This document shows positions 728-19,070 of a DNA stretch of 20,540 bases, piece by piece (the first letter of the stretch is position 1; every line of letters starts with the position of its first letter). The translations under genes were made by a program, and so were the position numbers. Below the pieces are notes generated by a model that saw only the letters and a program-made list of their open reading frames with translations, ran no database searches and was not told where the DNA came from. The DNA comes from Promethearchaeota archaeon. GTDB lineage: Archaea > Asgardarchaeota > Heimdallarchaeia > Hodarchaeales > Hodarchaeaceae. The stretch covers positions 1-20,540 of the forward strand of contig JBHLPG010000050.1 in the NCBI GenBank assembly GCA_048939725.1, in the 5' to 3' direction.

Positions 728-1969
728 ATGGTCTCCAAAAATAGACATTTCTGTTCAGTTCACCTGTGGAAATTAACTAGACTATATGTTCTCTTGAATC
801 ATGATCTTTGGTTGTTTCTCTCCTCGTTTTTAAGAAAAACCACAATATCAGGGCTATCAAAAAGGTTGAGAATACAGTATAAAGTTTTAACCAATTTTCG
901 TGACTCCCCTCAGAAGTCAATTTCTGTAAGAAATTTGTTTAAAATCTGCAAAGAGTTGAATTTAAATTTTGAAACAGTTGAAAAGTCAATACGAGCTGTA
1001 CGTTTTTCTAATCACGGTAAATTAGAAAAAATCTCTTTTCCCTTTAATATGGATATCTATTCTTGGCGGTTGATCTGTCATATTATTGGGGATGGAACGA
1101 TCGACAAACGACATTCCTTTCCTTCCTTAACTTGGTCTCAAAACTTAAAAAATCAAGTAGAAATACGTACCTTAATAGAGAGATTAAGTCGTTATCCGAA
1201 TGGTAATAGCATACGAGTTAACTACCCTAAAGGTTTAACTTATGTAATCATGAAAGCTATTCCAGAACTAACTGTTAATGATTTGAAAAAGCCCAAATTT
1301 GTACAATTTGTAATTAACTTGCCATCTGAATATTATGACTGGAAAGTACAATTTCTTACAGCTTTTCTTCTGGATGATGGTAATGTGGGGAAGAATATCT
1401 CATTTGCTCAAAAGAAAAAGGCAATCTTAACTAATGTGATGCGATTATGTGATCAGCTTGGTTATGATCACACTCCTTATCCGCCGAAACTACATCCAAA
1501 TGGAAGAGTTTACAGATTTCGTTTATATCAAGGAGGAGTACTGCAGTTTTATAATGATCTCGAAAGAATCGCTTCTAATGATCCAATATTAGGACTGTGG
1601 CATAAAAAGAGTGATTTGGAATCGGTTATAAACTCGTACAATTTAGATAAGGGCTCAGCATTACGAGACTCACGGGAATTTTATGTTACTCTTCTTGAAA
1701 TTCTTGGAGATCATCAGATAAAAACTACTATAGATCTCCGTAAAAATCCAAGAATACAATCTTTTCTATCAAAAAAGCATCCCAACTTCCTATTACACCG
1801 CTTATACTATTTACGAGATAAAGGATTTATTAGGCATGTTAAGAATAATGAAAAAAGACCTTCTTCGTGGTGGATTCCCCCATCAAATGACCCTGTAAAA
1901 CTGTCAACAGAATTTCGAAAAAATTATGGTCTTAAATCGTTTACATCTTCAAAGAGGGTGAAATTATGA
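728..1969 (+). CDS. Free-standing double-motif LAGLIDADG homing-endonuclease-like protein with N-terminal HTH and C-terminal winged-helix-like region
   Basis: Two LAGLIDADG motifs sit 95 aa apart: WRLICHIIGDGTI (Asp codon 1091-1093) and FLTAFLLDDGNV (Asp codon 1376-1378). N-terminal TISGLSKRLRIQYKVLTNF looks like an HTH. C-terminal LLHRLYYLRDKGFIRH looks like a wHTH recognition region. Confidence 0.7.
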   Translation: MVSKNRHFCSVHLWKLTRLYVLLNHDLWLFLSSFLRKTTISGLSKRLRIQYKVLTNFRDSPQKSISVRNLFKICKELNLNFETVEKSIRAVRFSNHGKLEKISFPFNMDIYSWRLICHIIGDGTIDKRHSFPSLTWSQNLKNQVEIRTLIERLSRYPNGNSIRVNYPKGLTYVIMKAIPELTVNDLKKPKFVQFVINLPSEYYDWKVQFLTAFLLDDGNVGKNISFAQKKKAILTNVMRLCDQLGYDHTPYPPKLHPNGRVYRFRLYQGGVLQFYNDLERIASNDPILGLWHKKSDLESVINSYNLDKGSALRDSREFYVTLLEILGDHQIKTTIDLRKNPRIQSFLSKKHPNFLLHRLYYLRDKGFIRHVKNNEKRPSSWWIPPSNDPVKLSTEFRKNYGLKSFTSSKRVKL

Positions 1970-4341: not shown

Positions 4342-5676
4342 TTGGCTTTACCTGAATGGTTTATTTTACAATCCCCACCTAATTTAGATATAGATATCAA
4401 GAAGTGGAAAGAATTAGCGTGGAATAGGGTGAAGCTTCTTGAGGAGCTTCCTAAAGGGCGATCACGAGTTGTCCGAGATTATTTCCCACCAACAGATGAT
4501 GATTCATTAACACAGATATATAATGATTACCGTTTAGGAGCATATCTCCTCAGATTAGTTGCTGCGACCAATCGTAGGTTAGAGGCCTGGTTGATAGAAA
4601 CGGAAGGCGATCTATTTGAATATTTGTACTCTGATCGCACATCTGGAGATCAAAAGTGGGAAATTTTCAAGTGTTTATTTGGTTCTGAGAACGTAATGAC
4701 CTATGAAGAGTTCAAGTATAAAATGGACGAAAGGCAAAATGAATATTTAGCTGACCTCTATCACCAATTTTATTCGGCCCGAGGAAGGGTATCAAGTGAT
4801 TTCCTGACGTGTGTTCATTTCACTCAAGTTCCATGGATGGTTTCAAATCGACGAGGATACCTTCGAAAGGGATGGGTAATATCAAATGAAAATTCTTTTC
4901 GAGGGAGTCTTAAGAAAGCTTTTGAAAGCAAGCTCCAAGAAGAGGTGGTAAAAGCTCAGGATCGATTGGGAGTAATCGAAAGTATAGATCAAGCAGTTGA
5001 GGATATTGAACAAAACCTCGCAAGACACACTCAAATTCGTTCCCAATTTTCTTCTGAAGAATTCGAAGGGAGAGACCTACAATCACATCCTGAAATCTTT
5101 CCTCCTTGCATGATATATCTATTCTCAGAATTGGAAAATACAGGACGTCTAATCCACGCACATCGTCTTCAATTAGGTTTCTTTCTAAAGAAAATTGGGA
5201 TGGCTGTTGAAGAACAACTGCTATTTTGGTATGAAAAATCTGTAGATAATCTGAATATTACCTATGAAAATTTCTTACGGACTTCTGGGTACCAAATACG
5301 CCATCTCTACGGATTAGAAGGTGGAAAGAAGGATTATAACGTTCCAAAATGCTCTACTATCGCCACAAGCTATTTCTGTCCATTTGTTCATCTAGCCCCA
5401 GCAATTTTACTCGAGTTTCTTAGTAAAAATTACCTAACTCATGCAAGATCTTTGACTCCACCAAGGAATCACCTTGAAAGAATTGTTTCTCAGAGCGGAA
5501 GTAATCCAACCTTGGCTTGTACGATGTATTTTCCGAGTATCTTTAAGCAATCTCTCTATCGAAAAATAGTTCATCCGTTACAATGGGCTAGATATGCTAG
5601 TCGATTTGAAGGATTAATGGTTGACCAGGAGGAGAGTGATTCATCGGTAAATGAAGAGGCGGAAAGAAATCAGTGA
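4342..5676 (+). CDS. priL: DNA primase large (regulatory) subunit PriL
   Basis: 444 aa. The C-terminal domain has four Cys in the usual Fe-S context (FPPCMIYLF, VPKCSTIATSYFCPF, LACTMYF). TTG 4342 follows in-frame TAG 4327-4329. The stop overlaps the priS start. Confidence 0.85.
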   Translation: MALPEWFILQSPPNLDIDIKKWKELAWNRVKLLEELPKGRSRVVRDYFPPTDDDSLTQIYNDYRLGAYLLRLVAATNRRLEAWLIETEGDLFEYLYSDRTSGDQKWEIFKCLFGSENVMTYEEFKYKMDERQNEYLADLYHQFYSARGRVSSDFLTCVHFTQVPWMVSNRRGYLRKGWVISNENSFRGSLKKAFESKLQEEVVKAQDRLGVIESIDQAVEDIEQNLARHTQIRSQFSSEEFEGRDLQSHPEIFPPCMIYLFSELENTGRLIHAHRLQLGFFLKKIGMAVEEQLLFWYEKSVDNLNITYENFLRTSGYQIRHLYGLEGGKKDYNVPKCSTIATSYFCPFVHLAPAILLEFLSKNYLTHARSLTPPRNHLERIVSQSGSNPTLACTMYFPSIFKQSLYRKIVHPLQWARYASRFEGLMVDQEESDSSVNEEAERNQ

Positions 5677-6656
5677 ATCAAGCTCAACAGCGAACCGCTC
5701 TTCGTGATTACTATTCCACCCATTTTAGCTTTGATGACCTATCAAGATTTATTGACTTTTCAAAATTTTCAACGCGCGAATTTGGTTTTGCTACATTTGA
5801 AGGGAAATTTTTTCGGAATATTTCTTTTGAAACCCCTAAAGCATTACTCGATTTTCTGGTAGATCGGACACCCTTTCATGCTTATATTGGTGCGGTATAT
5901 AGCGAACCTCCATCTCGGGAGAATCCCATTCATTCACTTGAGTGGATCGGGCATGAACTTGTGTTTGATATCGATCTAAATGAATACGATGCAGTACGAC
6001 AGTTTGTTTGTAGTTGCCAAGGTGCAGACCAAGTATGCATTCGATGTTGGCAACTAGTTAATCTTGCAGTTCATATCATAGATGAAACATTACGTCATGA
6101 CTTTGGGATGAAGGAGATAACTTGGATTTTTTCAGGACGGCGGGGTGTTCATGGTTGGGTTACAGATGATTTTCTGAATTCTTTAAATCAAGAACAACGA
6201 ATGTCAATTATTGATTATCTATCAATCATTCACGGTGAGGCTGAAACAGCACGAATTCAAGATCGTAAGAAGTTGAAGTATGATTTTAGGTATCGAATTG
6301 AACACACTGTTTTCAAATATTTTCTGAAAACTGTTCGCCGAAAAGATCTAATAGACCTGGGTTTCAGCTCCTCTGGAGCGACCAATATCATGAAGCAATT
6401 GGAATACCAAGAAGGGCAGATTGATGAGAGCTTGTTGAGGAATTTCAATCTTAGGATTGCTAAGATTAATAAATACGATGAAATATTACGACGATGGGTA
6501 CCACGGATAGATCACAAAGTAACTATCGATCTACGACGATTGCTACGATTGCCTACCTCTATACATGGAAAAACGGGCAAAATTGCACAAATATTAGATC
6601 CTAGTAGCATCTTTTCATTTAATCCTGATGAAGAATCTTCCATTTTTGCCAAATAA
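5673..6656 (+). CDS. priS: DNA primase small (catalytic) subunit PriS
   Basis: REFGF, catalytic DxD in FDIDLNEYD, Zn knuckle CSCQGADQVCIRCW, SGRRGVHGWV, RLPTSIHGKTG. GTG 5673 is the first start after in-frame TGA 5652-5654 and overlaps the priL stop by 4 nt (GTGA). Confidence 0.9.
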   Translation: MNQAQQRTALRDYYSTHFSFDDLSRFIDFSKFSTREFGFATFEGKFFRNISFETPKALLDFLVDRTPFHAYIGAVYSEPPSRENPIHSLEWIGHELVFDIDLNEYDAVRQFVCSCQGADQVCIRCWQLVNLAVHIIDETLRHDFGMKEITWIFSGRRGVHGWVTDDFLNSLNQEQRMSIIDYLSIIHGEAETARIQDRKKLKYDFRYRIEHTVFKYFLKTVRRKDLIDLGFSSSGATNIMKQLEYQEGQIDESLLRNFNLRIAKINKYDEILRRWVPRIDHKVTIDLRRLLRLPTSIHGKTGKIAQILDPSSIFSFNPDEESSIFAK

Positions 6657-8686: not shown

Positions 8687-10231
8687 TCAAGTACGACTTT
8701 TTCGTCTTCTAAGCCATATATGTCCAAATACTATAAATATTAGAGTGAAAGTTGGAAAATTCCACCCTGTAATATTGGGATAATTATCCTTCTTTGAAGT
8801 CAACGATAGTGAAGAAGATTTGATTGATGAAGAAGGGTTTGTTAATGATGAGCTCATAGATGTACTAGAGCTTAAAGGGACATCTTCTCCTAATGAGACT
8901 TGAATATTGTCCCAAAAATAATGACCTTGCTCAGTCGATGTCGCTCGATCTGATCCATCACCGAAACATATGTCAGTCCATGAAGAATGATAAGACTGTG
9001 AATTACTCGATGTAATATGTATTCCATTTATTTCCAAAGAAAAATGATCTGTATAAGTGTAAATATTAAAATTATACCATTTTTTGACTTCGAATGGGAA
9101 ATCATGCCATGTTTGTAGTTGTGGATAGTCAGGAGGTTGTTCATAAATCGTAAACCTTACTTTACTAACATTATATATTCTAATCTGAAATGGAAACAGA
9201 ACAGAGGAACTATCACTCCCTGTAATAACTGATATCGATCCAATTTGATGTTCTGGGATGAAAAAATCAACAGATGTCCTTATATATTCTTTTTCTTGCA
9301 ACTCGGGTAAGAAAATTTCTTGTTTGCAAACGCCTCTCTGAGTAAGGGTTGATCGAATTTCTACTGAAGGAGGAGGTGCCCCTAAAGTGTCGTTTCGAGT
9401 AATAACACCCGGATTTGTGATTATCCAATTATTTAATTCATTAAAGGAGTCCTCAAGAATGATGGTCTCATTTCCTGGTTCTTCTGGATAGGATTCATTA
9501 TATATTCCTAGAAATGCACCCTGACTTTCAGAGGATCTTGGTAACTCCTCAGTTATCAAAGGTTGAGAATAGCGGACAAACCTTGGACCATTATACGAGA
9601 TAGTGCTTTGATGAACAAACGAAACGGAAACTAACGTCATAGAGCTTGTTTGAAAGAAATCAAAAAAGGGGTCGAGTTCAATTCCCCACTGTTCCCAATA
9701 ATTTCCAAGTTCTATTGTTGGGTTGGCAAATTTCAGAACAGCGGGCGAAGAATTACTATAACCACTACTAGAATAAGCTTTTGCAATATAGATCCAATAA
9801 AATTCTTCAAGATCGGTTTTAATACCCACTCGCGCGCCAATATAGGTTGCATACTCGAGTTCACCGAAATCCATCCAATGAAACAACAAACCATGCCCAC
9901 GGGGTAAGTTAATTTCACAATCATGCTTTGTTAAATTAAACATCAACCACCCATTACCAATAAGCTCAAATGTAGATGCACCAAACATTTTAATGTCTGG
10001 ATTTATTGTATAACTAGTAAAATGACGTGTATTTGCCGCAAAGTTGTCAAGATTACTCCAATTCCCGATAAAATCAACAAGAAGCCGAGATTTCGAATCA
10101 TAATTGATAGAATCGGATGTATTGGTGATTTTAAGACGCGCTAGCTTACTATTTAATGGAATAGAACTACCTAGAAAAAATATTACAAAGCATATTTTGA
10201 AAAAAATAAAAAGCTTTTTTCCTTCTTTCAC
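8687..10231 (-). CDS. Secreted/surface-anchored protein of unknown family; possible glycoprotein
   Basis: N-terminal signal/TM KKLFIFFKICFVIFFLGSS. About nine N-x-S/T sequons by my count. C-terminal Ser-rich linker (SSSTSMSSSLTNPSSSIKSSSLSLTS), then hydrophobic FPTFTLIFIVFGHIWL and basic RRRKSRT. WYNFNIYTYTDHFSLEINGIHI weakly suggests a ConA/LamG-like sandwich. Confidence 0.65.
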   Translation of the reverse strand: MKEGKKLFIFFKICFVIFFLGSSIPLNSKLARLKITNTSDSINYDSKSRLLVDFIGNWSNLDNFAANTRHFTSYTINPDIKMFGASTFELIGNGWLMFNLTKHDCEINLPRGHGLLFHWMDFGELEYATYIGARVGIKTDLEEFYWIYIAKAYSSSGYSNSSPAVLKFANPTIELGNYWEQWGIELDPFFDFFQTSSMTLVSVSFVHQSTISYNGPRFVRYSQPLITEELPRSSESQGAFLGIYNESYPEEPGNETIILEDSFNELNNWIITNPGVITRNDTLGAPPPSVEIRSTLTQRGVCKQEIFLPELQEKEYIRTSVDFFIPEHQIGSISVITGSDSSSVLFPFQIRIYNVSKVRFTIYEQPPDYPQLQTWHDFPFEVKKWYNFNIYTYTDHFSLEINGIHITSSNSQSYHSSWTDICFGDGSDRATSTEQGHYFWDNIQVSLGEDVPLSSSTSMSSSLTNPSSSIKSSSLSLTSKKDNYPNITGWNFPTFTLIFIVFGHIWLRRRKSRT

Positions 10232-10987: not shown

Positions 10988-12106
10988 TTAAGGAAATCGT
11001 GTTATATTCTGATATGCATTTTGGATTGCTTGCATGAGATCCGTTGCTGTTGTCCCTGGGCTTTCACAATCATGGCTGTTTAAGAAAGATTCAATGTAAG
11101 AAGCCAGAGGGGTTGTGTTTAAGTCAACATTACGGAGATGTTGTTCCAATTGAGGAAGGATAGAATCAGGATATATCCAGAAATCACCACTAATTAGAAT
11201 ATCCATAAGAATTGAGCCTTGAAATTCACAGATCACTTGGATTAACCCACCAATTGATTTGTGAGTTCCCTCTACAATGAAATTAGAAGCTTGGATCTTC
11301 ACTTTATGAATTAGGTTTTTTCCTCGATTAGTTACCTGGAATTTCCATTCATCAGCTAAATAGGTAGACCTTAGTTGCTGCATTAATTCAAGAGTTTTAG
11401 ACTCAAGAGTAGTAGGATTCAGGTGAACATTCAAGGTTGATTCAAATTCTTGGCAATATATCTCAATAATCTCATTCCGATCTGGAATGAAACCAAGTTC
11501 ATCCTGAAAAGAGGTAAGCCCAGCTTCTAATGATTTATAGACTTTATCACGGAACTTTTCATTCGGGACTCTTAGTATCTTTGTCATCTCTTTACGGGGA
11601 AAATCTAATATAAAATTACCAACCAAAACTTGCGCACTCTCAAGGAGTGCAGCTCCATTTCCTGATATTTTTCGCCCATTTACCAATATATCATTGACGG
11701 GTTGATATTTGGCATCTACACTAAAATGACGATAAGTATTTACAACTGGCTCAAGAAGTTTCGAGAATAAGGCTGAAACTTGCCGTGGAACAATTTTTGA
11801 ATCAATGTGGGCTACAACATTATAAAAAAGTTGGTTAGAATCTAGTAAGACTGCTCCACCACCACAGGCTCTTCTAACGACAGGAATCTCTTTCGTTTCA
11901 CAATAATTCAGATCTACAACTTGATTGATGGATTGGTGGAGTCCACAACAGACAATTGGATCCTTTGGCCAATCAATAATTACCAAATCGCGTTTTTGAA
12001 TCCCTCTACTCCTTGCTAAACTAGCAGCGTGCCAAATCGTCTGAGTATTGATGCTTTCGTTCTCCCCAAAAACAATCAGATCCCATTCATTGGTTTTTAT
12101 GGGCAT
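10988..12106 (-). CDS. lplA: Lipoate-protein ligase A family protein (catalytic plus C-terminal domain)
   Basis: RRACGGGAVLLDSNQLFYNV and NDILVNGRKISGNGA (lipoyl-AMP lysine motif). C-terminal GGLIQVICEFQGSILMDILISGDFW matches the LplA accessory domain pattern. Confidence 0.8.
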   Translation of the reverse strand: MPIKTNEWDLIVFGENESINTQTIWHAASLARSRGIQKRDLVIIDWPKDPIVCCGLHQSINQVVDLNYCETKEIPVVRRACGGGAVLLDSNQLFYNVVAHIDSKIVPRQVSALFSKLLEPVVNTYRHFSVDAKYQPVNDILVNGRKISGNGAALLESAQVLVGNFILDFPRKEMTKILRVPNEKFRDKVYKSLEAGLTSFQDELGFIPDRNEIIEIYCQEFESTLNVHLNPTTLESKTLELMQQLRSTYLADEWKFQVTNRGKNLIHKVKIQASNFIVEGTHKSIGGLIQVICEFQGSILMDILISGDFWIYPDSILPQLEQHLRNVDLNTTPLASYIESFLNSHDCESPGTTATDLMQAIQNAYQNITRFP

Positions 12107-12405: not shown

Positions 12406-13625
12406 TTGACCGAACAGATGAGAGTTATCAGAACAGAACAGATATGGTTAAAACCGAATAAATACTTCTCTTGGCTTTGTCATTTATCAAAGAACCTCTA
12501 CAACGAAGGAAATTATCTAATCCGTCAAGAATTTTTTAATAATGGTAAATGGATTCGGTATAATTCCCTGTATCACCTTCTAAAAACTTCAGAAAATTAT
12601 CACTTACTTCCAGCTCAAACAGCTCAACAAGTGTTGAAAATCCTTGATAGGAGTTGGAAAGCCTTTTTTGGAGCGATTAAAGAGTGGAAGAAGGATAAAT
12701 CAAAGTTTCAAGGGAGGCCAAAACCTCCTAGATACAAACCGAAGAATGGAGAGGTTATACTGGTTTTTACGAATCAACAGGTGAAAATAAAAGATAATAT
12801 CCTGCTATTTCCTAAAAAAGTAAGTTTCCAGCTAAAAACTAGACTTCCTGACAGAACCGACATCAGAGAAGTACGAATTATTCCAAAGGGGGTGGGTTAT
12901 ATAGTAGAAATTATCTATGAAAAAATAATTTATCCTAAACCTTTGAATAAAGATAACATTGTAGCTATTGATTTGGGGGTTCGCAATCTCATAACTATGG
13001 TCAATAACAATGGTTTGAAACCGTTTGTTATTAAAGGTGGAATTGTTAAATCCATTAATCAATATTATAACAAAGAAAGAGCACGAATTCAATCAACCTA
13101 TAACCGTCAGGGAATAAAAACAGGGAGATCAATGCAAAAATTAACCAATAAACGGAATAAGAAGATATACGACTATTTCCATAAAACTAGCAGAAAAATT
13201 ATAGAGTACTGTGTGATGAACGGCATTGGAACAATTGTGATCGGGTACAATTCTAATTGGAAGCAAAAGTGTCGAATTGGAAAAAGGAATACTCAAAATT
13301 TTGTCACCACTCCATACTACAAGTTAATTCAGCAATTAGACTACAAGGCCACAGAGCAGGGAATTTCAGTCTTTAAACAAAAAGAAAATTATTCAAGTAA
13401 ATGTTCTTTTTTGGATAATGAATCAATCGAATACCATAGTAAATATCTAGGCTGACGAATGACTAGAGGACTCTTCAAATCTCAAAAAGGCACTGTTATT
13501 AATGCTGATGTGAACGGTGCCTATAATATTATGAAAAAAGGTTCCTGAACGCAATTAATGCTGACAGGATAGAGGATGTAGGGTTACATCCCACACGATG
13601 GAGACTAGCAGCGGTGACGGGCTAG
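12406..13625 (+). pseudogene. tnpB: IS200/IS605-family TnpB (OrfB) RNA-guided endonuclease gene, disrupted by an in-frame TGA and a 1-nt frameshift
   Basis: RuvC-I VAIDLGVRNL, RuvC-II region KENYSSKCSFLD, then YLG-TGA(13453-13455)-RMTRGLFKSQKGTVINADVNGAYNIMKK (RuvC-III Asp lies after the stop). At the A6 tract 13534-13539 the frame shifts by -1 to RFLNAINADRIEDVGLHPTRWRLAAVTG*, stop 13623-13625. The likely true start is ATG 12418 rather than TTG 12406. Confidence 0.85.
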
Positions 13626-13671
13626 TTGATGACCTCATGTGAAAAAAACTGAATATATTTTTATCAGTTTT
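13560..13671 (+). ncRNA. Candidate omega-RNA (reRNA) scaffold of the TnpB element
   Basis: Locally GC-enriched segment overlapping the tnpB 3' end, with three hairpins: ggatgta-gggt-tacatcc (13574-13591), ctagc-N11-gctag (13605-13625), aaaactga-N11-tcagtttt (13645-13671). The position matches where TnpB omega-RNAs are encoded. Confidence 0.3.
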
Positions 13672-13744
13672 AATAACCTCTCATTATTAAAATAACGCAA
13701 GGAAAACGACATCTTCAGTTTTCCTCAGCCAAGGTGATGATTTA

Positions 13745-14677
13745 TTGAGTTCTCCAAGAATAGTTTTTTTGTCAGGGGGTACTGGGACACCAAAATTACT
13801 TCGAGGCGTTGTTAATGTAATTGATGCTCGAAATATTACAGTTATTGGAAATACTGGAGATGATTGGCATTTCTATGGATTACACGTATCGCCTGACATC
13901 GATAGTATCTTATTGACATTATCAGATCTCATAGATACCGATAAATGGTGGGGGATAAAAGATGACACATTCAATTTAGTAGATTTTCTAAAAAGACACT
14001 TAAAGCAAGATGTATGGTTCAATCTAGGGGATTTTGACGCAGGGTTGTGCCTATATAGAACTCATTTGTTGAACCTAGGAAAGAGTCTTACTGAGTCTGT
14101 AGAAACAATCCGAAGACGTTTGAACGTCAGCTCTCGCGTATTACCAATGGCCGATCAACCTATTCAAACAAAAATTCGAACTCCCGAACAAACACTGCAT
14201 TTACAGGAGTTTTGGGTAAAATATAAGGGGGAAGGACCGGTTTCAAATGTTTTTTTTGAAGGAGATTTGAGAAAAACCACTGATCAGGTTCTAGAAGCCA
14301 TTCAAAATGCTGATGTTATTATTATAGGCCCTAGTAATCCAATTTCATCAGTGGGCCCCATTTTAGCTCTTCATCCCCTGAGAAAAGCATTACAGAAGGC
14401 TTCTGGATATCGTATAGCAATTAGTCCAATAATTGGTAAAAATGCAGTTTCAGGTCCAACTTCAGCATTTTTAAAAGCATGGGGACATGAGGTTTCTCCT
14501 GTAGCGATTGTGGAATTATTTCATGATGTTCTAGATGCATTTATGATTCATAAAACCGATCAGAATTATTTTGATCTCATCCAAAGAATGGGAATCACTC
14601 CGATATTAGAAGATATTTACATTCATACAAAAGCTGACGCGTCGAGATTGTTTGAGCGAATAATGGATAGTAAATGA
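13745..14677 (+). CDS. cofD: 2-phospho-L-lactate transferase (LPPG:FO transferase) CofD
   Basis: FLSGGTGTPKLLRG, VSPDIDSIL, IIIGPSNPISSVGPIL, SPIIGKNAVSGP closely parallel Methanocaldococcus CofD as I recall it. TTG 13745 has AGGTGAT 6 nt upstream. No in-frame ATG or GTG back to TAA 13688-13690. Confidence 0.9.
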   Translation: MSSPRIVFLSGGTGTPKLLRGVVNVIDARNITVIGNTGDDWHFYGLHVSPDIDSILLTLSDLIDTDKWWGIKDDTFNLVDFLKRHLKQDVWFNLGDFDAGLCLYRTHLLNLGKSLTESVETIRRRLNVSSRVLPMADQPIQTKIRTPEQTLHLQEFWVKYKGEGPVSNVFFEGDLRKTTDQVLEAIQNADVIIIGPSNPISSVGPILALHPLRKALQKASGYRIAISPIIGKNAVSGPTSAFLKAWGHEVSPVAIVELFHDVLDAFMIHKTDQNYFDLIQRMGITPILEDIYIHTKADASRLFERIMDSK

Positions 14678-15433
14678 ATGTCCAGTTCCAGAAACCCTAG
14701 TATTTTAGCCGCAATGGCTGGCATAACTAATGGAGATTTCGCGAAACAGTGTTTATTCAAGGGAGGAGCTGGCATGGTTACTATTGGAGGGTATCCTATT
14801 GGAAGAGATATGATTACTGCTTCGTCTAAAATCGCTCAAAGAGGTCGAAAGGAATTTATCCTTCATTTTGGAAAAGAACATGATGAAATATTAAAAGAAA
14901 CCCATGGTATTCAAGATTTGTCGCGGTTTATAGTTAATTTAAGGATTAAAAGTTCAAAAGAAGCAAAGAGATTTGCACAGAATTTTCAAGATTTGATTTC
15001 AGAAGAACCGATAATTGAGATAAACGCTCACTGTCGTCAACCTGAAGTTACTAAATTGGGAGGTGGCCAAGGTCTTTTACAGCGGTGTGATGTTCTTACA
15101 GAAATTATACAAGCATTTCAATTTAGAAACTTCAAGATTTCTCTAAAATTTCGTGGAAATGCGATTGATCCGAATATTCTTGTCCCTAAAGTTGAAAAAT
15201 GGCAGGTTGATTTTCTACATATCGATTCATATAAGAATGGAATTATGGGAACAGATTTAGAGTCACTAGAATTATATGCAGCGAAAACTAACATACCAAT
15301 CATTGGAAATAATTCAGTAGTGGATTTCAAAAGTGCTCAAGCCATTTTAAACACTGGAGCGGACTATTTTTCTGTGGCTCGAGCTGCAAGAAACAATTCA
15401 AACATCTTCAAAACGATATTGAAACATTTTTAG
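14678..15433 (+). CDS. DUS/NifR3-related archaeal FMN-type TIM-barrel protein, function unassigned
   Basis: 251 aa. LAAMAGITNGDFA, INAHCRQPEVTKLGGGQGLL, ISLKFRG, FLHIDS parallel dihydrouridine-synthase motifs (APMxGxTD, NxGCP, KxR, H). ATG immediately follows the cofD stop. Confidence 0.65.
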   Translation: MSSSRNPSILAAMAGITNGDFAKQCLFKGGAGMVTIGGYPIGRDMITASSKIAQRGRKEFILHFGKEHDEILKETHGIQDLSRFIVNLRIKSSKEAKRFAQNFQDLISEEPIIEINAHCRQPEVTKLGGGQGLLQRCDVLTEIIQAFQFRNFKISLKFRGNAIDPNILVPKVEKWQVDFLHIDSYKNGIMGTDLESLELYAAKTNIPIIGNNSVVDFKSAQAILNTGADYFSVARAARNNSNIFKTILKHF

Positions 15434-15497
15434 AAAAATTAAACTTTCGAATTTTTGACCTAATGAAGGTGTTAAACCCCTGGAAATCCCGAAACCT

Positions 15498-16151
15498 TTG
15501 ATACTCATCCCAATTAAGGATTTTTCAGAAACCAAATCACGAATTAAAGCGGTAATACCAGCTGAATATTCGACTTTTATAGATCGTTTGGTAGAATTAA
15601 CATTTTTTCGAACAATTGAAATCGTAAAATCTTTTTCATGTCCTTTTGGTGTTATTTCACCTTCAACTTCTGTCATAAACAAAAGCAAGAAAATAGGAGC
15701 TACATTCACTTACCGTGACACAGGTATCGATCTGAATATGGCATTAACAGAGGCTGTTCAAGAATTACCCCTAGACCAAACGATTTTAATTATTTTACCA
15801 GATTTACCATTTATTTCGGAAGATTTTTTCCACAAATTACTAAATGAAGCTAGTCAATACGACATGTTGATAGTCCCATCAATCTCAAGTGATAAAAACT
15901 TGGGAACAGCAGCGTTGTATCTAAAAAATCGAACGATGGTATCATTTCAATTTGGGAGGAACAGTAGTGAACGATATCAGTTAGAAGCGAAAAAAAATAA
16001 CCTTAAAGTTCGTTTATTAACTTTTGATCCATTTGCTAGAGATTTAGATACATTAAATGATGTTAAATATTTAAAACAACATTTGAAGGCGATCATTAAA
16101 CCTGAACCTTTCAGGAAGGTATTAGAACAATTGGATATTATTGCTCTTTAG
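15498..16151 (+). CDS. cofC: 2-phospho-L-lactate (or PEP) guanylyltransferase CofC
   Basis: MILIPIKDFSETKSRI N-terminus, ILIILPDLPFIS, MLIVPS...GTAALYL, DLDTLNDV. TTG 15498 is the only plausible start after in-frame TGA 15456-15458. Confidence 0.8.
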   Translation: MILIPIKDFSETKSRIKAVIPAEYSTFIDRLVELTFFRTIEIVKSFSCPFGVISPSTSVINKSKKIGATFTYRDTGIDLNMALTEAVQELPLDQTILIILPDLPFISEDFFHKLLNEASQYDMLIVPSISSDKNLGTAALYLKNRTMVSFQFGRNSSERYQLEAKKNNLKVRLLTFDPFARDLDTLNDVKYLKQHLKAIIKPEPFRKVLEQLDIIAL

Positions 16152-16206
16152 TAAGAAGAGGCTATTTTTGACCAATAATACTTATATAATAACACCTACC
16201 CAAAAA

Positions 16207-17340
16207 ATGACAAAAAATCACGCTGTAGAATTCTTAAATCAAAACAGGTTAGATGTAGTTGATACATGGAGGAAATCAGCTCAATCTATTACAGACCGAG
16301 TTTATCAACGGCGAATTACATTCACAACCAATGTTTTTCTACCTTTAACCTTTCTTTGTAGAAATGCGTGTCATTATTGCGGATTTCGTCAATCTAAAGT
16401 GCCTAAAGGTCAGGAATATTTAAAACCAGAGAAAATAGAAACGATTCTTGCTAGAGCAAAACGATTACGGGTATCTGAAGTCTTAATCACAATGGGAGAC
16501 AAGCCTGAGCAAAAATATCCAAATGCAAAAAAATGGTTACAAACGCATGGTTTTGACTCTACGATAGATTACACGCATTTTATTGCAAAAAAAGCATTAA
16601 AATATGAACTTTTACCCCATATTAATGCGGGTACATTAACTATTGACGATCTAACTCGCCTACGTGAAGTATCTGCGAGTATAGGATTAATGCTTGAAAC
16701 TACAAGTCTAAGACTAACACAAAACGGATTCCCCCACGATCAATCACCTGATAAAACTCCAGAGAAACGAAAGCGGACTATTGCTCTCGCAGGACAATTG
16801 AAAATTCCCTTTACAACTGGAATTCTAGTAGGAATAGGAGAAACTCTAGAAGAGATAGTAGATAGTCTTTTTACTTTAAAATGTCTTTATCAGGAATATC
16901 AACATCTCCAAGAAGTCATAATTCAAAACTTTCAACCTCAGAAAGATACTCGAATGGCAAATTCCGCCCCTCCTTCAGTTGAACTGATAGAGAAAATTTT
17001 AATTGTAGCCCGTCACATCCTTCCTGCAGAAATCTCAATTCAAATTCCACCAAATCTTATTAAGGGGTACGAAAAGCGATTCCTACGAGCAGGGATGTCT
17101 GATTGGGGAGGAATATCCTCAATTTCATCAGATTATATAAATCCAGATCATACCTGGCCCTTGCAGTCGGAATTAAATCAAATAACTGAGGAAGCAGGGT
17201 ATTCCCTACAAGAAAGACTCCCAGTCTACCCTCGTTACATTAATGTAGATTGGTTATCAGTGCAAATTTACCAGTTAATTAAGCAAAAAAAGCTGAAAAC
17301 AAGGATGGTTATCGAAAACGGTGCATCAGGCGGATTTTGA
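16207..17340 (+). CDS. cofG: FO synthase subunit 1 CofG (radical SAM)
   Basis: CRNACHYCGF radical-SAM cluster motif with CofG-like context (TFTTNVFLPLT, ITMGDKPE, GILVGIGET). I prefer ATG 16207. The tracked TTG 16141 would add 22 aa and overlap cofC. Confidence 0.85.
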   Translation: MTKNHAVEFLNQNRLDVVDTWRKSAQSITDRVYQRRITFTTNVFLPLTFLCRNACHYCGFRQSKVPKGQEYLKPEKIETILARAKRLRVSEVLITMGDKPEQKYPNAKKWLQTHGFDSTIDYTHFIAKKALKYELLPHINAGTLTIDDLTRLREVSASIGLMLETTSLRLTQNGFPHDQSPDKTPEKRKRTIALAGQLKIPFTTGILVGIGETLEEIVDSLFTLKCLYQEYQHLQEVIIQNFQPQKDTRMANSAPPSVELIEKILIVARHILPAEISIQIPPNLIKGYEKRFLRAGMSDWGGISSISSDYINPDHTWPLQSELNQITEEAGYSLQERLPVYPRYINVDWLSVQIYQLIKQKKLKTRMVIENGASGGF

Positions 17341-18460
17341 GGAAATTAATCTTCGAATAGCCAAGAAAGAGATTCAATGTATCCTTAGAAGAGCATTGGA
17401 TGAACAGGGGCCAACAGTTGAAGAATTATCTGTTTTATTTTCAGCACAGGGGCGCGAAATTTATCTATTGGCTCAAGTAGCTGACATCATTAGGGAACGT
17501 CAGGTTGGATCGGTTATCACTTATGTAGTAAATCGCAATATTAACTTTACAAATGTCTGTACCAACAATTGTCTCTTCTGTGCTTATTCAGTTCCACCTG
17601 ATTCAATTACAGGGTATATAGATATTTCAATTGACACTTTACGGGAAAAAATCGAAGAAACACTCCCCTATCACATTACTGAAGTCTGTGTTCAAGGGGG
17701 AATCCATCCAGAAATAACATTTGAAACCTATATCGAAATTCTTCAAAATCTCAAAGAGATTGATTCAAATCTTCACATCCATGCTTTTTCTCCTCAAGAG
17801 ATTACTCATGCAGCTAATTCTATAGGGGAAGATGTTGAAGAGGTTTTGAGGGAATTTAAACGAAAAGGCTTAGATTCTATACCAGGTACAGCTGCTGAGA
17901 TCCTTGATGACAAAATTCGGAGAATTATTTGCCCTCAAAAGATCAATAGCTCGAACTGGATTAATATTATCGAATTAAGTCATCAATTGGGGATTCCAAC
18001 AACAGCAACAATTCTATTTGGACATATTGAGAATTCCAATCACTGGATACATCACCTCACATTATTACAGAAGATACAAGAGAAGACAAAAGGCTTCACA
18101 GAATTTATTCCGCTCCCATTTATTGCCGAAAATACTCAATTGAAGTCAAAATTTTCCTCCCAAATCAATGAACTAACTGGTTTGGATTATATGAAGTTTT
18201 ATGCTATTTCTCGGTTGTATTTAGGAGACAGTTTCAAGAATATTCAAACATCTTGGGTGAAGCTAGGTTTTCCACTGGCTCAAATTACATTAACAACTGG
18301 ATGTAATGATTTTGGCGGAACTTTATTTGAGGAAAATATCACTCGATCAGCTGGAGGGCGATTCGGGCAACTAACTACCCCCGAAAAATTTCAGTCGTAT
18401 ATTCTGCAGCTAGAAAGAACCGCGTGTGAGCGAGGGACATTGTACAACCTCTTGTGTTAA
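17321..18460 (+). CDS. cofH: FO synthase subunit 2 CofH (radical SAM)
   Basis: CTNNCLFCAY motif, VCVQGGIHPE, TATILFGHIE, EFIPLPF. GTG start overlaps cofG by 20 nt. Confidence 0.9.
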   Translation: MHQADFEEINLRIAKKEIQCILRRALDEQGPTVEELSVLFSAQGREIYLLAQVADIIRERQVGSVITYVVNRNINFTNVCTNNCLFCAYSVPPDSITGYIDISIDTLREKIEETLPYHITEVCVQGGIHPEITFETYIEILQNLKEIDSNLHIHAFSPQEITHAANSIGEDVEEVLREFKRKGLDSIPGTAAEILDDKIRRIICPQKINSSNWINIIELSHQLGIPTTATILFGHIENSNHWIHHLTLLQKIQEKTKGFTEFIPLPFIAENTQLKSKFSSQINELTGLDYMKFYAISRLYLGDSFKNIQTSWVKLGFPLAQITLTTGCNDFGGTLFEENITRSAGGRFGQLTTPEKFQSYILQLERTACERGTLYNLLC

Positions 18461-18618
18461 TAAAGCTTTAAATTAGGATAATTAAACTCTTTAAGCAAGA
18501 ATTGAAAGTTAGAAAACGAAATCATAAAGTTACTAATCACATTTAGTTCAAAGAAAGATCTAAATACTGTATATAGACCATACTCCCATAAAAACACGAA
18601 ATAATAACATATCATTTA

Positions 18619-18647
18619 TTATAAAGCTTATAAAGTTCTTATAAAAG
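18619..18647 (+). promoter_or_regulatory. Three tandem TATA-like TTATAAAG boxes upstream of the response-regulator gene
   Basis: ttataaag at 18619-18626 and 18628-18635, ttataaaag at 18639-18647, plus cctataatta at 18651-18660. The ATG is at 18699. Confidence 0.3.
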
Positions 18648-18698
18648 CAACCTATAATTATCAGTGGCTTCGAGATTCCCATTAAATAAGGTCTGACA

Positions 18699-19070
18699 AT
18701 GCCTGAGGAGAAGAAAAGGATCTTAATTGTTGATGATGAGGAAGATACCCTCGAAATGCTTAGTACAATCTTAGAACATGAAGATTATGAAACTTGGAGA
18801 GCAACAAACGGGAAAGAAGCATTAGAATTAGCAAAAAAGAATCCTGATCTCATACTTTTAGATATAAGAATGCCAGGAGTCTCTGGACTTGAAGTATGCC
18901 GTCGGTTGAAACAAGATGATGAGTTTAAGCACATTCCGATTATTATTTTCTCTGCTAAAGTATTAAGTCATGATATAGAGCTCGGATTAAACGCGGGAGC
19001 CAATGAATATCTCACAAAGCCATTTAGCACAAAAGAACTTACTCAGTTAATTAAAAAATACATTTCTTGA
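18699..19070 (+). CDS. Single-domain response regulator (CheY-like receiver only)
   Basis: DDEED acidic pocket, LILLDIRMPG phospho-acceptor Asp, IIFSAK, EYLTKPF. 123 aa with no output domain. Confidence 0.9.
   Translation: MPEEKKRILIVDDEEDTLEMLSTILEHEDYETWRATNGKEALELAKKNPDLILLDIRMPGVSGLEVCRRLKQDDEFKHIPIIIFSAKVLSHDIELGLNAGANEYLTKPFSTKELTQLIKKYIS

Follow-up and report, generated by a model that had tools for sequence, protein, structure and literature searches.

In Actinobacteria and Chloroflexi, the enolpyruvyl group of dehydro-F420-0, an intermediate of coenzyme F420 synthesis, is reduced to a lactyl group by FbiB through its C-terminal domain or by the stand-alone FbiE. These proteins use reduced flavin mononucleotide (FMNH2), have the nitroreductase alpha+beta dimer fold and are encoded with cofE/cofD-type genes. 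For about 20 years there has been a gap in the archaeal pathway at the origin of the lactyl-phosphate linker of F420, and different groups disagree on whether phosphoenolpyruvate (PEP) or 2-phospholactate (2-PL) is the precursor. Here, we analyse a gene that directly follows cofD in a stretch of 20,540 nucleotides (contig JBHLPG010000050.1, referred to as the window) from an Asgard archaeon of the Hodarchaeaceae. The gene, here called dusL, encodes a TIM-barrel protein resembling the dihydrouridine synthases (Dus) and belonging to the MJ0144 or 'archaeal Dus' family; a database protein identical to it is annotated as 'tRNA-dihydrouridine synthase'. We regard DusL as the strongest candidate to date for the lactyl-forming reduction step that is missing from the known archaeal route to F420. 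The gene family and its annotation are known already, while the function pointed to and the breadth of the linkage to cofD are new.

The chemistry proposed here has precedents in several flavoenzymes. In Dus, dihydroorotate dehydrogenase (DHOD) and dihydropyrimidine dehydrogenase (DPD), the hydride of FMN is passed to or taken from the beta carbon of a carbonyl-conjugated C=C bond, and the proton at the alpha carbon is the task of a Cys or a Ser. For the enolpyruvyl group itself the precedent is MurB, which turns an enolpyruvyl ether into a lactyl ether by reduction, with the hydride going to C3 and the proton to C2. MurB is, however, not homologous to DusL: it has a flavin adenine dinucleotide-binding (FAD/PCMH) fold, is NADPH-bound, uses a Ser as the acid and gives a D-lactyl product.

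The archaeal step has been approached from both precursors. Methanocaldococcus jannaschii CofC (MjCofC), together with CofD, makes dehydro-F420-0 from PEP in vitro, and Bashiri et al. in 2019 then postulated an unknown archaeal reductase, 'CofX'; nitroreductase-fold genes around cofE were sought in the same study and none were found (PMC6450877). In yeast, M. jannaschii CofC and CofD yield dehydro-F420-0 exclusively, the two enzymes readily accept PEP without 2-PL, and the archaeal reductase is described as 'yet-unknown' (PMC10949242). Hasan et al., on the other hand, found archaeal CofC/CofD pairs to be specific for 2-PL, a preference seen in vitro (PMC8764529). The source of archaeal 2-PL is reported as unknown, and a gene for the lactate kinase was never found (PMC6450877, PMC8498797, PMC8305020). 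A preliminary description of the present stretch, made from the sequence alone, had made the same point about the kinase, in agreement with the literature (PMC6450877, PMC8498797, PMC10949242), and had proposed that the dusL product reduces the enolpyruvyl group of either PEP or dehydro-F420-0. A detailed review of haloarchaeal annotation lists the origin of phospholactate as open and leaves the neighbour of cofD unnamed. The literature searched holds no paper linking the DusL family to F420, and searches for MJ0144, for methanogenesis marker 9 and for F420 together with dihydrouridine synthase and CofD returned no papers.

In the window, dusL is the second gene of a cluster that starts with cofD and continues with cofC, cofG and cofH, see Table 1. 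No base separates the cofD stop from the dusL start, and the two genes share one reading frame; cofD itself starts with TTG, with GGTGA upstream of the start. Abutting or overlapping cofD/dusL junctions recur in relatives, and the zero-gap junction suggests that the two genes may be co-transcribed and translationally coupled. The score of the cofC product is slightly below the cut-off of its family model (105 bits). With a GC fraction of 0.356, dusL is comparable to the neighbouring genes, and a database search gives 191 homologues for it at E<=1e-5, with identities down to 84% in other metagenomes; it is a genuine conserved gene and no chance open reading frame (ORF). The layout given in the preliminary description, i.e. 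the cofD stop directly before the ATG, a 251-residue product and one strand shared with the four cof genes, is confirmed by the sequence and by family models run on the neighbours. All the motifs quoted there are present as well (residues 11-21, 114-123, 155-160 and 181-183), and, as it stated, a search of the window for cofE found none. Homologues of nitroreductase, CitG-like, DUF447, arfA and marker 9 (mmp9) genes were not found in the window either, and Rfam and tRNA scans of it gave no matches. A promoter and terminator scan of positions 13400-18800 stayed at or below the level of shuffled sequence, which is uninformative, since bacterial-type models were applied to an archaeon.

Profile searches bear out the proposal that DusL belongs to the Dus/nifR3-like proteins. 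It matches the Pfam family Dus (PF01207) over residues 70-246 with 35.5 bits, where the gathering score is 20.4. The NCBIfam model TIGR00736 (nifR3_rel_arch, 'MJ0144 family RNA dihydrouridine synthase-like protein') is matched end-to-end, residues 13-244 aligning to positions 1-230 of 231 with 177.3 bits (E 3e-52), though under the cut-off of that model. With the MJ0144 family DusL also shares the length class, the signature motifs and a clade in the tree, and it is one of its Asgard members, although membership as such does not define a mechanism. A nitroreductase domain (PF00881-type) was not matched in Pfam or NCBIfam, nor was Old Yellow Enzyme (PF00724) in Pfam at E<=1. A profile of 80 homologues matches Escherichia coli DusB at E 5.7e-20, and the aligned segments (family/DusB) include AAMAGITD/APMAGITD, EINAHCRQ/DINMGCPA, SLKIR/TLKIR, IGNNS/IANGD and SVARAA/MIGRAA.

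The AlphaFold2 model of DusL is a confident TIM barrel (pLDDT 94.8, pTM 0.93), consisting of a bare eight-stranded barrel that ends at residue 251. In Foldseek, DusB, TM0096, DusC and Thermus thermophilus Dus rank first, followed by DHOD and DPD. The top matches (DusB, TM0096 and DusC) have E values of 1e-10 to 1e-9 and a query template-modelling score (TMq) of about 0.7. The target score (TMt) is only 0.53-0.60, because the extra domain of the solved Dus proteins, whose chains have 305-346 residues compared to 251 in DusL, is unmatched. As modelled, DusL thus has the catalytic core found in flavoenzymes of the Dus/DHOD type and lacks the helical tRNA-binding domain of Dus. Class 1 DHOD and the FMN domain of DPD, the next-best fold matches, likewise use FMN and an active-site Cys on a carbonyl-conjugated C=C bond. 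However, the sequence signal to these proteins is weak (PF01180/TIGR01037, E ~0.02), and both the set of pyrimidine-binding Asn residues and the electron-transfer partners differ.

The family has few members and stands well apart from ordinary Dus proteins. When 1.84 billion representatives were scanned exhaustively with HMMER, 62 proteins (clusters at 50% identity) scored E<=1e-30, and ordinary Dus proteins of 300-330 residues start near E 1e-25 in the same scan. A neighbour-joining tree of the barrel mirrors the organismal groups, and we therefore treat the members as one orthologous family. Three candidates for membership or fusion were rejected. P0172 (L089:5001-5783) and P0176 (L088; loci of our sample are numbered L) carry the motifs EIDAHCNS and ELNAHCAA and have neither RQ nor H-x-D; they are probably of other specificity, and the P0172 locus is a glycosyltransferase/cytidylyltransferase cluster. 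P0184, with 447 residues a candidate for a fusion, is an ordinary Dus. In the exhaustive search of representatives there were no fusions of the family to CofC, CofD or CofE; the only ones seen there are to marker 9 and, once, to a GGACT domain.

The conservation of residues, scored over 80 sequences, shows which parts of the Dus active site are kept and which are replaced. In the segment corresponding to the flavin-binding motif after strand 1, M13 and G15 are nearly invariant or invariant. C119, aligned with the catalytic Cys of Dus, is invariant, as are E114, H118 and Q121 around it, giving the signature E-x-[ND]-x-H-C-R-Q in place of D-x-N-x-G-C-P in Dus. K157 and R159 of the K-x-R motif are invariant across the family, and further on D183 is invariant and H181 at least 90% conserved. 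In the putative FMN-phosphate loops, I209, N211 and N212 are invariant, and S232, A234 and R235 are at least 90% conserved. In the insert after strand 2 the family has a basic motif of its own, RGRKEF in the window, in which R57 and E59 are invariant and the conservation of R55, G56 and F60 is 90% or more; we infer that it may be an anion (phosphate or carboxylate) binding site or a lid. Both E-x-[ND]-x-H-C-R-Q and H-x-D are carried by DusL and by about 60 cluster representatives. Compared with Dus (DusA/B/C and Dus1-4; PF01207, COG0042), DusL thus has the homologous FMN TIM barrel, the (A)xMAGITD motif, the Cys after strand 4, the K-x-R lysine and the FMN-phosphate loops. It differs in the extra RGRxEF loop, in being encoded in F420 operons and, in methanogens, in the fusion to marker 9.

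These features bear on whether the existing annotation could be right, i.e. whether DusL is a minimal, one-domain archaeal RNA (tRNA) Dus reducing uridine to dihydrouridine (D). The Pfam, DusB and Foldseek matches are those of a Dus, and the catalytic Cys and Lys are retained. Further, the protein falls into the 'archaeal Dus' subfamily, of which MJ0144 (Q57608) is the representative (PMC3674756, PMC9775027). However, this subfamily was in 2026 still called 'not well-characterized to date' (PMC13136901). The deviations from NxGCP to NxHCRQ and from HxR to HxD, listed for the subfamily by Kasprzak et al. in 2012, match the motifs of the DusL family (PMC3674756). The C-terminal helical tRNA-binding domain is absent and the Cys-flanking motifs of Dus are replaced, which favours the interpretation of the preliminary description. 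D is also rare or absent in hyperthermophilic archaea, absent from Haloferax volcanii tRNA and not among the reported D-loop modifications of Methanococcus maripaludis (PMC7668247, PMC2584109), although the family occurs in M. jannaschii and in Halobacteria. RNA-modification genes are not conserved neighbours, and the named distribution is that of F420 producers and not of archaea in general. Taken together, a function on RNA appears very unlikely to us.

A function in F420 synthesis is supported by the gene neighbourhood. We compared 98 loci of the family, 80 from a genome scan and 18 from contig look-ups; this sample is biased and the loci are not independent. In 28 of the 98, the gene immediately upstream, with the same orientation, is cofD; in 10 more, cofD is within 1.3 kb. 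Asgard metagenome-assembled genomes (MAGs) labelled Heimdall-, Hod-, Hermod- and 'Prometh' contain cofD-dusL-cofC-cofG-cofH or shorter forms of it, and Borrarchaeota contain cofD-dusL. In Freyarchaeota (L027) and in a Thermoproteota MAG (L011) the genes overlap in the order cofE-cofD-dusL-cofC, while Jordarchaeales have cofE-cofD-dusL with cofC upstream and divergent. The order is cofD-dusL-cofC in the lineage of loci L084-86, cofE-cofD-arfA-dusL-atwA-marker 9 in Methanobacteriales, cofD-dusL-CitG-like-DUF447 in Halococcus, Halorubrum, Natrinema and a Haloferacaceae MAG, and cofD-dusL on two unplaced contigs (L087 and L095). By our own placement of the phyla, the linkage to cofD spans at least four of them. 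The genes beyond the cluster vary, with a lipoate ligase-like gene in the window and RNA polymerase subunit H or Rpb5, HD-domain proteins or a response regulator in relatives. The weight of the synteny lies in the number of deep lineages and in these varying outer flanks, not in the raw counts. The linkage is strongly conserved, which is the opposite of the lack of linkage to cof genes that the preliminary description had named as speaking against its proposal; all the computational checks proposed there favour, and thereby support, its interpretation.

Two features of these loci narrow down the step. First, the CofE adjoining DusL is a single-domain protein of 248-300 residues with PF01996 only in every locus seen, in line with the earlier statement that archaeal CofE lacks an FbiB-type domain; no known dehydro-F420-0 reductase module is therefore present there. 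Second, cofC is absent from the examined Methanobacteriales and halobacterial loci and from L001. The partner kept in the cof-linked loci is hence cofD and not cofC, which favours the product of CofD over the substrate of CofC. With either precursor, the pathway lacks one activity, reductive or phosphorylating, and dusL, as the sole unassigned member of the conserved cofE-cofD-dusL-cofC core, is a candidate for it.

On one of the unplaced contigs, a divergent member of the family (L087:221-1270) follows right after the 3' end of cofD and is fused to a C-terminal gamma-glutamylcyclotransferase-like (GGACT/AIG2) domain. This fusion hints at gamma-glutamylated F420 species as ligands.

The phyletic distribution agrees with the gene neighbourhood. 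All named members of the family belong to archaea with F420 genes: Asgard groups including Baldrarchaeia and Heimdallarchaeaceae, Thermoproteota, Methanobacteriales, Methanopyri, Methanosarcinales and many cultured Halobacteria. Halobacteria have F420 and reportedly no methanopterin (PMC8305020), methanogens have both, and the family is present in the two groups. Among the named hits there are no members from methylotrophic bacteria, which have methanopterin and no F420, and none from F420-producing Actinobacteria and Chloroflexi, where a nitroreductase-type reductase is found instead (PMC8498797). This is the pattern expected of a non-orthologous replacement of the dehydro-F420-0 reductase. 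Indeed, DusL and FbiB/FbiE would occupy the same place in the pathway with unrelated structures, since the bacterial proteins are nitroreductase-type dimers and DusL is a TIM barrel, there is no sequence similarity between them, and the proposed Cys general acid has no counterpart in FbiB/FbiE. The relation would be one of non-orthologous gene displacement, with functional analogy only.

A single locus is labelled as bacterial (L018, JAIWAT010000062.1, Anaerolineales bacterium) and contains a dusL::marker 9 fusion. It is probably a mis-binned archaeal contig, because the tree places it beside a Methanosarcinales sequence (L015).

We suggest that DusL could be a stand-alone FMN-dependent reductase, built on a barrel of the Dus/DHOD clade and not acting on RNA. 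It would be made together with CofD, and here also with CofC, CofG and CofH, and supply the single redox step for the lactyl-phosphate linker. FMN binding, substrate, reductant and stereochemistry are all predicted in this scheme. The bound FMN would first be reduced, in the Asgard host by NAD(P)H or F420H2, while in methanogens the electrons may enter via the Cys-rich marker 9 domain, which is fused or encoded nearby. FMNH- would then give a hydride to C3 (CH2=) of the enolpyruvyl group, CH2=C(OPO3R)-COO-, and Cys119 would protonate C2, yielding an (S)-lactyl group. The apparatus for the reduction of a C=C bond, Cys119, Lys157 and the FMN loops, is retained. His118 and Arg120, which flank Cys119 at the positions of Gly and Pro in Dus, together with Lys157, Arg159 and the RGRxEF loop could hold the carboxylate and the phosphate; since this set is cationic, it suits such a ligand rather than uracil.

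The substrate would be dehydro-F420-0, made by CofC and CofD from PEP. It is favoured over PEP because cofD and not cofC is retained, because bacteria reduce at that step and because the GGACT-like fusion follows cofD. That DusL is the FMN- and Cys-dependent reductase of dehydro-F420-0, the archaeal 'CofX', is nevertheless a tentative assignment. A role in reducing an enolpyruvyl group during synthesis of the F420 side chain, with dehydro-F420-0 and PEP taken together, appears moderately probable from the sequence evidence. We regard it as evenly balanced whether the whole MJ0144-type 'archaeal Dus' family makes the lactyl group of F420 from one of these two substrates, driven by marker 9 in methanogens, instead of modifying RNA.

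If DusL instead acted one step earlier, it would be a PEP reductase, i.e. a 2-PL synthase that hands its product, a toxic and poorly connected metabolite, directly to CofC and CofD and replaces the unfound lactate kinase, CofB. In most Asgard, Thermoproteota and L084 loci, dusL has cofD on one side and cofC on the other, which would suit a channel of three enzymes, and the conserved R55, R57, R89, H118, R120, K157, R159 and R235 would suit a small, tri-anionic substrate. It would also agree with the failure to find a kinase gene and with the high specificity of archaeal CofC and CofD for 2-PL, which was 're-established' as the compound from which archaea start (PMC8764529). However, the linkage that survives everywhere is the one to cofD, and MjCofC and MjCofD use PEP without 2-PL, which makes a downstream reductase equally plausible (PMC10949242). 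We find the reduction of PEP to 2-PL rather doubtful, although it ranks second, not far behind dehydro-F420-0.

Several observations weigh against dehydro-F420-0 reduction by DusL. The assignment draws on gene context, fold and conserved residues. If 2-PL is the true precursor, a reductase for dehydro-F420-0 is unnecessary; Graupner and White in 2001 reportedly found GTP-dependent lactate kinase activity as well as 2-PL in methanogen extracts, which likewise speaks against a PEP reductase. DusL is under the curated cut-off of TIGR00736 (218.7 bits), a model built on euryarchaeal sequences, and so is a member from Methanosarcinales (187.6 bits). When the CofE of Freyarchaeota was used as a query, the best 120 matches were all single-domain, and they came from Frey, Jord and Bathyarchaeia lineages, with Hod and Heimdall unrepresented. 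In Lokiarchaeum, an FbiB-like fusion has been reported (PMC6450877). Furthermore, in Methanosarcinaceae, Methanocellales, Mnemosynella and L090, dusL is not near cof genes, and in Methanoperedens, ANME-2 and Methanopyri its neighbours are uninformative.

In the first four of these, dusL has different partners: a CitG-like gene is overlapped by the dusL stop, and next come a DUF447 gene and a flavoprotein+Fer4 (DmrX-like) gene. We leave this second linkage without an explanation, and it is a further caveat to the proposed role. It was outside the forecast of the preliminary description, and so was the association of the family with methanogenesis marker 9 by fusion or in an operon. The CitG-like/DUF447 linkage is limited to one phylum, Halobacteriota, compared to four for cofD. 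In Halobacteria (L091-L093, L096, L097 and L098), the two linkages meet in one operon, cofD-dusL-CitG-like-DUF447, with overlapping stops and starts. We considered and rejected two paralogous subfamilies, one linked to cof genes and the other to CitG-like genes, as the tree follows organisms and Halobacteria join both linkages at a single gene. We take the CitG-like, DUF447 and DmrX-like genes to be homologues of the orf7, orf5 and afpA types of the tetrahydromethanopterin (H4MPT)/methanopterin islands of methylotrophs. DUF447 is presumably an FMN-binding family, and its matched entries in the Protein Data Bank (PDB) are listed just as uncharacterised.

From these neighbours it can be asked whether DusL is a reductase of another cofactor pathway. 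It could act in a methanopterin-type pathway, for example in the unassigned reduction from a ribofuranosylaminobenzene intermediate to the ribityl form, or in the pyrimidine branch of riboflavin and Fo, in which case its linkage to cofD would be an instance of cofactor genes clustering in general. In addition to the CitG-like and DUF447 genes, which follow dusL also in Halobacteria, arfA (GTP cyclohydrolase IIa/III) is directly upstream of dusL in Methanobacteriales, and MptE-like and methanopterin radical-SAM genes are located at most 4 kb from dusL in Methanopyri. However, the family is common across Halobacteria, organisms that use folate and from which the methanopterin-specific enzymes are reported absent (PMC8305020), suggesting that the CitG-like/DUF447 pair may have an unrecognised role there. 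Moreover, no bacterial (methylotroph) members are found among the named hits, the examined Asgard and Thermoproteota clusters consist of F420 genes only, and the CitG-like/DUF447 linkage is restricted to one phylum against four for cofD. A place in another cofactor pathway is, in our view, unlikely.

Marker 9 is found with dusL in two arrangements. In Methanosarcinaceae, Methanocellales and Mnemosynella, DusL is fused to the 109-residue 'methanogenesis marker 9' domain (TIGR03277), which contains two Cys-rich repeats. More broadly, the dusL::marker 9 fusion occurs in class II methanogens and anaerobic methanotrophs (ANME), seen at L012, L025, L028 and L049 and at other Methanosarcinales, Methanocellales and Methanoperedens loci. 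In Methanobacteriales (L048, L058, L068, L074 and others), marker 9 has a gene of its own and the order is dusL-atwA-marker 9, where atwA encodes the methyl-coenzyme M reductase (MCR) component A2 ATPase.

The association of DusL in methanogens with a Cys-rich, probable Fe-S domain, by fusion or within an operon, would also suit an F420-linked redox enzyme, such as an NAD(P)H- or ferredoxin-dependent reductase of F420 or Fo, or a flavin reductase that keeps the cofactor or a partner reduced. DusL would then be placed like Fno, Fgd and FDOR in bacterial clusters, and the DUF447 gene that follows it in Halobacteriota, presumably encoding an FMN-binding protein, would fit as well. F420-using oxidoreductases are often found within F420 biosynthesis clusters (PMC8498797). 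However, the invariant acid-base set of Cys, Lys and His would be needless for hydride transfer between flavin and deazaflavin, and the tight abutment of cofD-dusL-cofC over four phyla exceeds the loose association of Fno and Fgd. We consider an F420-linked redox function improbable, and a reductase of dehydro-F420-0, or of PEP, remains the reading that we prefer.

The remaining genes of the window are included in Table 1. Upstream of cofD, between it and a lipoate-ligase-like gene, there is an ORF for TnpB, an RNA-guided nuclease of the IS200/IS605 type. It is interrupted by an in-frame TGA; reading past this codon gives RMTRGLFKSQKGTVINADVNGAYNIMKKGS and then a stop, with a RuvC-III-like motif. 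With this motif beyond the in-frame TGA, the gene is either a pseudogene or read through. In L001 and L004, an unannotated ORF of 372 residues has the same size, position and strand, about 100 nucleotides from cofD, and we assumed it to be the counterpart of TnpB. The element appears to have been inserted recently, right in front of the cof operon. A gene of the TnpB family is also found on an unrelated contig at L095:7077-8432, directly after cofD-dusL, where other lineages have cofC. Two ORFs without a Pfam match may be tentatively described from their sequence. One, with two LAGLIDADG-like motifs recognised by eye, may be a free-standing homing-endonuclease-like protein; in the other, the hydrophobic N-terminus, the Ser-rich stretch and the C-terminal hydrophobic anchor followed by basic residues suggest a surface protein. 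Finally, the window encodes both subunits of a DNA primase.

Table 1. Features of the dusL locus and other genes in the window (positions counted from its first nucleotide; residues are those of DusL).
Feature	Position	Strand	Remarks
dusL ('DusL', MJ0144/'archaeal Dus' family), Dus-like FMN TIM-barrel gene	14678-15433	+	251 residues, ATG start
cofD (LPPG/EPPG:Fo 2-phospho-L-lactate transferase), first gene of the cluster	13745-14677	+	TIGR01819 F420_cofD, 301 bits, cut-off 257
TGAATG junction of cofD (stop 14675-14677) and dusL	14675-14680	+	...AGT AAA TGA ATG TCC..., zero intergenic bases
cofC (2-phospho-L-lactate / PEP guanylyltransferase)	15498-16151	+	64 nt past dusL; TIGR03552, 99 bits, E 2.5e-28
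cofG (Fo synthase subunit)	16141-17340	+	overlaps the end of cofC; NF004884, 414 bits
cofH (Fo synthase subunit), last gene of the cluster	17321-18460	+	overlaps the end of cofG; NF005609, 430 bits
AAMAGITNGDF, residues 11-21	14708-14740	+	counterpart of the Dus flavin-binding motif APMAGITD after strand 1; aligned to DusB residues 26-55
RGRKEF, residues 55-60	14840-14857	+	basic motif specific to the family, located in the insert after strand 2; the aligned Dus has no counterpart
EINAHCRQPE, residues 114-123	15017-15046	+	Cys119 pairs with the catalytic Cys of Dus; DINMGCPA is the aligned DusB segment
SLKFRG, residues 155-160	15140-15157	+	K-x-R motif, Lys157 equivalent to the essential Lys of Dus; aligned to TLKIRTG of DusB
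HID, residues 181-183	15218-15226	+	H-x-D in place of H-x-R of Dus; from conservation and alignment
IGNNSV ... SVARAA, residues 209-237	15302-15388	+	counterparts of the Dus ANG and GR(A/G) FMN-phosphate loops, strands 7 and 8; aligned to IPVIANGDI / MIGRAA of DusB
ORF with LAGLIDADG-like motifs	728-1969	+	413 residues; ICHIIGDGTID and FLLDDGNVG
PriL and PriS, overlapping genes	4342-6656	+	large and small subunits of eukaryotic/archaeal-type DNA primase
ORF for a possible surface protein	8687-10231	-	514 residues
Lipoate-ligase-like gene	10988-12106	-	
TnpB ORF	12406-13546	+	in-frame TGA at 13453-13455

The main consequence of these observations is that a conserved gene abutting cofD makes the gap in the archaeal pathway directly testable. 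If the proposed role is true, the archaeal F420 pathway would be complete, heterologous production of F420 would be feasible without the mycobacterial FbiB, and, should PEP be the substrate, CofB would be unnecessary. It would also be a clean case of non-orthologous displacement, with an archaeal Dus-type TIM barrel in the place of a bacterial nitroreductase fold. For the family as a whole, the annotations as 'tRNA-dihydrouridine synthase' and 'dihydropyrimidine dehydrogenase' and the list of eight Dus subfamilies would have to be corrected; this 'Dus' would leave the inventory of archaeal tRNA modification, and methanogenesis marker 9 would gain its first function.

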